In this document: positions 3,527-4,213 of the stretch, in pieces
Layout: each line of letters starts with the position of its first letter
Numbering within the stretch: the first letter of the stretch is position 1
Virus record (IMG/VR): IMGVR_UViG_2681813205_000016
Location: 1-4,395 of that record
DNA from: a virus
Taxonomy: Duplodnaviria > Heunggongvirae > Uroviricota > Caudoviricetes
Length of the DNA stretch: 4,395 nucleotides
Direction: 5' to 3' (one strand)
The notes under the pieces: model-generated
What the model was told of the DNA's origin: nothing
The model's database searches: none
The model's input: only the letters and a program-made list of their open reading frames with translations
Program-made: the position numbers and the translations under genes

Positions 3527-3565
3527 GGGGATTTATCGATTTCTAATCCCTTGATATGTTAGGTA

Positions 3566-3571
3566 TATAAT
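3566..3571 (+). promoter_or_regulatory. Consensus -10 hexamer TATAAT, candidate promoter for the plus-strand ORF at 3644
   Basis: Perfect TATAAT about 73 bp upstream of the 3644 ATG. The nearby TTGATA (3551-3556) is only 9 bp away, too close to be its -35. AT-rich context makes chance occurrence plausible. Confidence 0.25.
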
Positions 3572-3643
3572 CCAACACTCATGGTCGCTCTCATAAACAT
3601 ATCCCTTGAGACGCAGCAGATTACAACAAATGAAGCCATATAA

Positions 3644-3958
3644 ATGAACAGTAAAGAAAGTTTGCGCAGAAGATTTTTACAACTAATGACAGAAAACGTT
3701 AAATCAGAGTTACTTCTTCTGATGGCAGATAATAACGAAGCAACAAGCAGCATTCTTGCAGACCCTTACGGTAAGATCTCACATAAAACGCTGGATATTA
3801 TTACCACAACATTAACACCGCTGATGCTTCAACGGCTGAAACATAATATCAACGCATGGGTTAATGAAGAATTAAGTCCTCCCTGCTTATGGGATTCTCG
3901 TTACGCATGTCAGCAAAAAATGCGAATTTTCAACTTACTATCACCAAAGCTCAGGTAG
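3644..3958 (+). CDS. Hypothetical protein (104 aa) encoded opposite to the lysis genes, between pinholin and endolysin; possibly YdfR-like (DUF1327)
   Basis: Only substantial ORF in the ~690-bp AT-rich spacer separating holin and endolysin. Helical, charged composition (MNSKESLRRRFLQLMTENVKSELLLLMADNNEAT…). Size and position match E. coli Qin ydfR as recalled; similarity itself is unverified. Weak RBS. Confidence 0.5.
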   Translation: MNSKESLRRRFLQLMTENVKSELLLLMADNNEATSSILADPYGKISHKTLDIITTTLTPLMLQRLKHNINAWVNEELSPPCLWDSRYACQQKMRIFNLLSPKLR

Positions 3959-3963
3959 CCATA

Positions 3964-3993
3964 AAATCCTGCCCTTCATGGCATACAGGATTT
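3964..3993 (+). other. Stem-loop (AAATCCTG … CAGGATTT, 8-bp stem, 14-nt loop) just downstream of the plus-strand ORF; possible weak terminator
   Basis: Perfect 8-bp inverted repeat ending in TTT, beginning 6 nt after the stop of the 3644-3958 ORF. The U-tract is short. Confidence 0.3.
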
Positions 3994-4213
3994 CAATGGA
4001 ATCACAATGACCAACTCTTGCACAGCTGTATCCCTGACTCCCCGACAACTCAGATTTTCAGTATCTGCTGCTATCTAAAGAGAAAGCGCACAAATGCAAG
4101 GGTCTTTCATCACGTCCTGTTATTGATTGCCTGTGACCTTTTCTTAACTCATGGAACGTTTTTTCAGTTAGAAATATTCATTTTACAACCAGTTCGTATT
4201 GTTTATTCATCGA

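Follow-up and report, generated by a model that had tools for sequence, protein, structure and literature searches.

In the phage-21-type lysis cassette, as carried by phage 21 and the DLP12 prophage, a PF04971 holin gene is followed by a PF00959 lysozyme gene whose product has a SAR-like segment and, further downstream, by Rz/Rz1. The slot that separates pinholin and SAR endolysin is usually taken to be empty or to hold ydfR. The latter arrangement is that of the Qin prophage of E. coli K-12, where ydfR has the same orientation as its P21-type holin and RrrQ-type lysozyme neighbors, essQ and rrrQ, and fits closely between them. A fuller version is carried by Stx2 phage 86 (AB255436; orf5-orf6) and Stx2a phage 12E129, which share the order S, long YdfR-family gene, opposite-strand orf6, R, with the YdfR-family gene being intact (213-268 aa). 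Finally, lambda bor and DLP12 borD, located after Rz, exemplify the single opposite-strand accessory gene beside the lysis genes that is of foreign composition, present in some relatives and absent from others, and beyond the reach of the late promoter. Such autonomously transcribed accessory genes are covered by the moron concept, and bor itself is a lipoprotein gene with a known phenotype.

The window analyzed here (i.e., the whole 4,395-nt stretch of DNA) carries the late lysis region of a lambdoid E. coli prophage on its minus strand, and the genes outside the slot are as follows.

4214..4395, minus strand: 3' part of the gene for a phage-21-type class II holin (pinholin), PF04971 (P21 holin S), E 1.4e-27
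2993..3526, minus strand: gene for a RrrD/RrrQ-type SAR endolysin, PF00959 (phage lysozyme), E 1.5e-24
2722-2153, minus strand: antirepressor-like gene, with P22_AR_N and ORF11CD3 domain matches
2156-2004, minus strand: strongly hydrophobic ORF of 50 aa, phrog_4906
1996-1529, minus strand: Rz gene, PF03245, with an embedded Rz1-like frame
Beyond Rz, plus strand: YlcI/YnfO gene
Beyond Rz: HNH endonuclease gene

The holin gene ends with a TAG stop codon (reverse complement of 4216-4214) and extends past the window end; the gene at the equivalent position of a related locus (L001) is labeled 'class II holin family protein' by PGAP. The endolysin gene starts with an ATG (reverse complement of 3526-3524), shares 83% DNA identity with K-12 rrrQ and, in translation, shows an E-x8-D-x5-T motif as well as a Gly/Ala-rich hydrophobic N-terminal segment, YGLSAAVLALIGAGASA, which is SAR-like, so that SAR behavior is predicted for the protein. 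A P21 holin S-type holin (PF04971) together with a lysozyme bearing such a segment (PF00959) places the cassette in the phage-21 type. The first-pass annotation had stated that the holin and endolysin genes of this cassette type are contiguous and overlapping, which is borne out by the 1-nt overlap of DLP12 essD and rrrD; the 687-bp separation found in the window is, therefore, a real departure. A second difference from phage 21 and DLP12 is the interruption of the window cassette between endolysin and Rz, where the antirepressor-like gene and the 50-aa membrane ORF are inserted on the lysis strand (2004-2722).

Two other peculiarities of the window were observed. Downstream of the lysis genes, there is a further AT-rich stretch (780-1080; 31-40% G+C) with a 52-aa hydrophobic minus-strand ORF (942-784) that has no family match; a 45-aa hypothetical protein is annotated at the corresponding place of locus L107. 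Further, 10 bp immediately upstream of the endolysin ATG, corresponding to one copy of a GATAAAT(A)TCC repeat, are absent from the window type but present in all other lineages, and a GGGATT-N11-AATCCC hairpin (3527-3550) is thereby left abutting the start codon. The endolysin start of the window also has no recognizable Shine-Dalgarno sequence, and translation of the endolysin may be weak or structure-controlled in the window type.

The gap between the pinholin stop (4214) and the endolysin start (3526) had been described in the first-pass annotation as an AT-rich island of ~690 bp whose only convincing ORF is on the plus strand (3644-3958), and both the coordinates and the low G+C content hold. 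The insert is compositionally foreign; that is, the island (3527-4213) has 38.9% G+C vs. 48.9% for the remaining window, and the ORF 38.4% (GC3 37%) vs. 55.6% (GC3 68%) for the holin and 53.9% for the endolysin, a composition unlike that of the flanking phage genes, as in morons. The ORF is also the sole long one with homologues, the overlapping 120-aa and 64-aa ORFs of the island having no family match. What the single-gene description of the spacer left out is a second, decayed gene on the minus strand, so that the island comprises the following features.

4178..4210, minus strand: YdfR/DUF1327-family stub MNKQYELVVK* (10 codons), starting 3 nt after the holin stop
3965..4137, minus strand: decayed C-terminal-domain part of a long YdfR-family (phrog_1085) gene, broken by in-frame stops and frame changes
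3644..3958, plus strand: intact 104-aa gene, phrog_1853 (E 3.5e-47), the same as ECs_1097 / WP_000138558
3527..3643 (117 bp): spacer separating the divergent endolysin and ORF starts, presumed to serve the ORF as promoter and leader

The 104-aa ORF is a real gene under purifying selection. Its protein is identical to ECs_1097 of the Sakai prophage Sp4, and the exact 104-aa sequence is present on at least 995 contigs, one source of which describes it as 'unknown protein encoded within prophage CP-933O'; thousands of genome annotations already list the gene as a hypothetical protein. Residues 1-102 align to positions 57-158 of the 159 positions of the phrog_1853 profile (unknown function), with the surplus N-terminal profile positions corresponding to over-long open frames of some relatives. 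The orf6 product of Stx2 phage 86, which is 53% identical to that of the window ORF, belongs to phrog_1853 as well (E 8.4e-50). A frame of 104-106 codons is kept in relatives that are 37-98% identical, with pairwise dN/dS values of 0.13-0.39 among six lineages and 0.09-0.44 among fifteen. Within the window lineage, the ORF diverges by 2.2-3.5%, compared to 6.3-8.2% for the adjacent remnant and 7.7-11% for the leader; that is, the ORF diverges about three times slower than its non-coding flanks.

The start of the gene appears to be misplaced in current databases. PGAP/RefSeq starts the protein at Met15 (3686), giving 90 aa (WP_000138558), whereas residues 1-14 are conserved as protein among relatives and, in the AlphaFold (AF2) model, form the first half of one continuous helix (residues 3-26). 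Both the conservation and the modeled helix indicate the 104-aa form, with the start at 3644 rather than 3686. The model itself is a five-helix bundle (pLDDT 84.7, pTM 0.74) of a basic protein (pI 9.3), in which no membrane segment (maximum Kyte-Doolittle 19-residue mean of 0.66), signal peptide or catalytic motif was found.

The intact frame persists in badly damaged surroundings in several cases. The island copies of O157:H7 sit in damaged prophages. For instance, the lysis block of Sakai Sp4 (L014:22131-29827) is inverted between IS629 and ISEc8, beside pchA, and an IS3-family element truncates the endolysin of strain PV15-279 (L013:3907-5568); both loci retain an intact 104-aa gene. Similarly, an intact 71%-identical ORF is found in an IS66/IS110-riddled region (L008:3447-4410) where the endolysin is broken and 28 codons are left of the neighboring long YdfR-family (partner) gene. 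C-terminally frameshifted copies also exist at some other loci (P0011-P0013, L082-L084).

The first-pass annotation had further pointed to ydfR of Qin as a similarly placed gene and proposed a search of the 104-aa protein against YdfR/DUF1327, neither of which turned out in favor of a relationship. The 104-aa ORF had no Pfam family at E <= 0.01 (including DUF1327, PF07041), the Pfam search of 12 members of the ORF family returned nothing at E <= 1, and BLASTP against K-12 YdfR gave no alignment at E <= 100; hence, the candidate identity of the ORF as YdfR was rejected. Moreover, both K-12 ydfR and ECs_1963 of Sakai Sp10 are lysis-strand genes, unlike the ORF, which is on the other strand and shares no detectable similarity with ydfR. 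What a YdfR gene should be, a lysis-strand gene directly after the holin, is represented in the window by the 10-codon stub alone (4210-4178). Nine of 12 residues at the stub are identical to the N-terminus of orf5 of Stx2 phage 86, a protein composed of DUF1327 (residues 1-100, E 3.7e-45) followed by a C-domain. Nucleotide homology to K-12 Qin tells the same story, running from essQ through the first 33 nt of ydfR, where it is lost, and resuming 10 nt upstream of the endolysin start.

The remainder of the decayed gene is recognizable from its C-terminal domain. In the relatives, a lysis-strand gene of 185-333 aa is located between the holin and the ORF, and the long YdfR-family forms share a C-terminal domain with the signature GRCMG..LQVAAEIE..PPFK..YLKGRI; many of their database members are named 'YdfR family protein'. 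In tblastn, window positions 4137-4006 align to residues 143-186 of 12E129_290 (44 aa at 36% identity, E 4e-5), interrupted by two in-frame stops; the MKGRI motif that ends the domain is read in a different frame (3979-3965). No nucleotide homology to the intact relatives was detected between ~3966 and 4174, and none of the 624 genomes that carry the island (below) has a feature annotated at the remnant. That is, where Stx2 phage 86 and 12E129 have an intact gene, the window has ~250 bp of wreckage.

Of 5,426 complete E. coli genomes, 624 contain DNA nearly identical to positions 3400-4395; these are mostly EHEC/STEC strains of several serotypes. The independence of this count is limited, most copies coming from clonal EHEC genomes and often from defective prophages. 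No match to the whole window in one piece was present among the top-ranked complete E. coli genome matches listed, and in the best of these (98% identity, 83% coverage) a same-strand 114-aa YdfR gene replaces the island. Hence, the window appears to be a recombinant of two cassette types, and since the rest of the window is closest (98%, among the matches listed) to short-YdfR prophages, the island represents an allelic alternative introduced by recombination. Both cassette types co-exist in single genomes, e.g., that of strain AUSMDU00014361. The island is, accordingly, present or absent at the same site among close relatives, with the same backbone carrying the same-strand 114-aa YdfR in its place. 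No known sRNA was detected in the whole window by Rfam at E <= 1; the AsxR, AgvB and Pas sRNAs have other locations, either adjacent to stx or in the interval from esterase to holin.

Across relatives, the slot is found empty (DLP12), with a short YdfR (Qin, Sakai Sp10), with a long YdfR alone (L015-L019), with a long YdfR plus the opposite-strand ORF (Stx2 phage 86, 12E129 and many IMG/VR prophages), or with a decayed YdfR plus the ORF (the present window). The orientation of the ORF is fixed: in all of the ~85 loci surveyed it runs counter to the lysis genes and starts right beside the 5' end of the next one. This neighbor is the endolysin in cassettes of the E. coli type, and the holin takes its place in three divergent lineages. 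One of the loci with a long YdfR and no ORF, L018, retains the final codons of the ORF, which run into the endolysin leader at a CCGATAA repeat (L018:3480-3545). The same CCGATAA repeat flanks the ORF cassette in L020 (L020:3140-3595), which suggests that L018 lost the ORF secondarily, through deletion between these short repeats, as opposed to never having gained it.

The ORF points against the Q-dependent late transcript, leaving its own promoter as the only source of expression. The candidate signals and repeats around the ORF are the following.

3527..3643: the 117-bp spacer, head to head with the endolysin
3528-3533 and 3545-3550, within the spacer: inverted repeat GGGATT/AATCCC
3553-3561, within the spacer: conserved block GATATGTTA
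3566-3571, plus strand: TATAAT, a perfect candidate -10
3630..3647, plus strand: mini-ORF MKPYK* (5 codons), whose TGA overlaps the ORF ATG (ATGA)
3964-3971 and 3986-3993, plus strand: 8-bp inverted repeat AAATCCTG/CAGGATTT with a 14-nt loop, inside the YdfR-family remnant

The TATAAT that had been pointed out as a candidate -10 is indeed perfect, and five of the six type-A relatives examined keep it, or have TACAAT, at positions -73 to -79 relative to the ATG. The -35 half, however, reaches 2-3/6 at best, with 2/6 as the best match for the TATAAT of the window, which is why the consensus sigma-70 scan of 3300-4395 reported no promoter, and the distant relatives have no TATAAT -10. The Shine-Dalgarno sequence of the ORF is weak (GAAG, ~10 nt upstream). 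The mini-ORF pattern M-[KR]-x-Y-[KE]-stop, with a variable third codon, is conserved in seven type-A relatives and is fused in frame with the ORF in the relative P0005; it may serve translational coupling or may just reflect a conserved weak Shine-Dalgarno block (GAAG/GAGG). As for the 3' end, an inverted repeat does exist at 3964-3993, where a downstream hairpin had been noted, but the hairpin is not terminator-like: its folding energy (-12.8 kcal/mol) corresponds to z = -1.1 relative to shuffled sequences, 25 of 200 of which fold as well, and it is followed by CAATGG with no T-run. Consequently, it was rejected as a terminator and is probably incidental. Beyond weak matches, no terminator was found on the plus strand from the ORF through the holin gene to the window end, so the own terminator expected of a moron is missing here.

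The leader is not of one kind throughout the family. A second leader type, found with the ORF on the plus strand at L003:3385-3430, L004:3385-3430, L026:3420-3470, L023:1335-1395 and L086:2918-2975, has a conserved hairpin, CCGYCAGTG-loop-CACTGGCG, in place of the TATAAT, and in the E. coli copies this comes with a T-run. A conserved outer helix (UCAGCC/GGCUGA) encloses the hairpin, with a linker that varies from 11 to 27 nt, ~50-70 nt upstream of the ORF start. The hairpin closely resembles the intrinsic terminator located just upstream of the holin in L001 (6103-6077, lysis strand), which by its position is probably the terminator of the PasA/PasC sRNA. It has no Rfam match; for the element as a whole, a leader attenuator and a small RNA gene are both conceivable. 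Stx2 phage 86 and 12E129 have the hairpin and T-run together with a good Shine-Dalgarno sequence, where the window leader has TATAAT.

We favor the hypothesis that the 104-aa gene is an autonomously transcribed accessory (moron) gene and that the 687-bp island would represent an accessory insert in the known variable slot between pinholin and SAR endolysin of the phage-21-type cassette, made of two parts: a wrecked long YdfR-family gene on the minus (late) strand and the intact 104-aa gene on the plus strand. This reading is favored because of the foreign composition, the presence/absence pattern, the orientation against late transcription and the selection that continued after the neighbor was lost; the missing terminator and the weak -35 and ribosome-binding sites, on the other hand, keep our confidence at about an even chance. 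It retains what was sound in the first-pass proposal of an independently transcribed moron, namely a conserved gene that the late transcript cannot express, while the promoter is half of one, the terminator is absent and the gene is not YdfR. The 9-12 nt, or the overlap, that relatives leave before the convergent gene likewise give no support to a classic self-contained moron with its own terminator. Compared to bor, the 104-aa gene lies between holin and endolysin rather than after Rz, and encodes a predicted soluble helical protein rather than a lipoprotein. Its promoter would most likely be in the 117-bp spacer, around the TATAAT at 3566-3571, which would allow the protein to be made in the lysogen, or in any case without late transcription; upon induction, convergent late transcription would run over the gene. 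The protein is most likely cytoplasmic and, we infer, would act by binding another protein. The first-pass annotation had also raised the question of whether plus-strand transcription interferes with endolysin expression. This is unlikely on geometry, since transcription of the divergent ORF leads away from the endolysin and into the direction of the holin.

Alternatively, it is possible, albeit at clearly lower probability, that the 104-aa protein is a dedicated opposite-strand antagonist or regulator of the late-expressed long YdfR-family protein and has been orphaned in the window. Under this hypothesis, the orphan copy may persist by acting on the partners of co-resident or incoming lambdoid phages, and such action in trans is conceivable given that EHEC genomes contain up to 17 related lysis cassettes. 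In favor of such a pairing, the ORF is usually convergent with an intact long-YdfR gene in relatives, and in the partnered lineages it remains convergent with the C-domain gene down to 37% ORF identity, at a gap of 9-45 nt or an overlap of up to 33 nt. The pair even holds together upstream of a different holin family (L026, L023, L024 and L022), and the window keeps a remnant of the partner gene. However, the ORF is intact without the partner in three lineages, i.e., the window type, L074 (66% identity) and L080/81 (58%), and is under purifying selection there, with dN/dS of 0.18-0.21 between these lineages and 0.10-0.14 within the window type. The partner also occurs without the ORF (L015-L019, of which L018 looks like a secondary deletion, as described above), neither protein has a PADLOC or toxin-antitoxin match, and the structure prediction of the partner yielded an unusable model (pLDDT 48).

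Under another alternative, the gene would work mainly in cis as RNA; that is, plus-strand transcription antisense into the YdfR-family and pinholin genes would, through transcriptional interference or antisense pairing, keep down holin expression that is leaky or comes too early, with a secondary role for the protein. The unit is transcribed towards the holin with no terminator found before or within the holin gene, and the convergent 3' ends of the relatives abut or overlap by up to 33 nt, both of which are consistent with such a role. An RNA-only role leaves unexplained, however, the dN/dS of 0.1-0.4, the conserved length and the confident fold, and in L026, L023 and L024 the pair is located upstream of the holin so that the ORF is transcribed away from it. 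We consider this alternative improbable. Equally improbable in our judgment is a more elaborate version in which the 104-aa protein and the long-YdfR C-domain constitute a convergent lysis-tuning module, a prophage-expressed inhibitor and a late accessory, with the EHEC orphans blocking or delaying lysis in trans; the targets of the orphans would be co-resident or superinfecting lambdoid phages, Stx phages included. Finally, the decayed neighbor, the C-terminally frameshifted copies and the many defective host prophages could suggest that the ORF is a dead remnant or a frame open by chance in the AT-rich debris of a decayed slot. This possibility is effectively refuted by the 104-106-codon frame remaining intact in lineages only 37-80% identical, the consistent synonymous excess and the roughly threefold slower divergence relative to the non-coding flanks.

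Searches for a function of the 104-aa gene gave no lead. The ORF family had no match in NCBIfam, PADLOC or the PDB sequence profile search, and no fold match was found for the 104-aa protein. Among defense and toxin-antitoxin models of PADLOC at E <= 0.1, there was none for the ORF, its homologue from Stx2 phage 86 or three partner proteins. A deep profile search of 1.84 billion representative proteins matched only 20 clusters, which are short relatives or fragments except for one repetitive 1373-aa chance match; by this measure, the family is a narrow orphan of enterobacterial prophages. The literature search returned nothing on ECs1097 / WP_000138558, and nothing relevant on ydfR with essQ, on DUF1327 with holin or on orf6 of Stx2 phage 86. 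The 104-aa gene is, in this respect, an ordinary conserved hypothetical accessory gene with no functional lead, and the gains of the present analysis are the corrected start codon, the corrected relationship to YdfR and the recognition of the decayed partner gene.

In conclusion, the slot between pinholin and SAR endolysin is a small recombination hotspot with at least five states, one of which places a selected opposite-strand gene in ~11% of complete E. coli genomes, mostly EHEC/STEC. If expressed from prophages, this gene would be another lysogenic-conversion or lysis-modulating factor in Shiga-toxin-associated phages, in which the timing of lysis governs toxin release.
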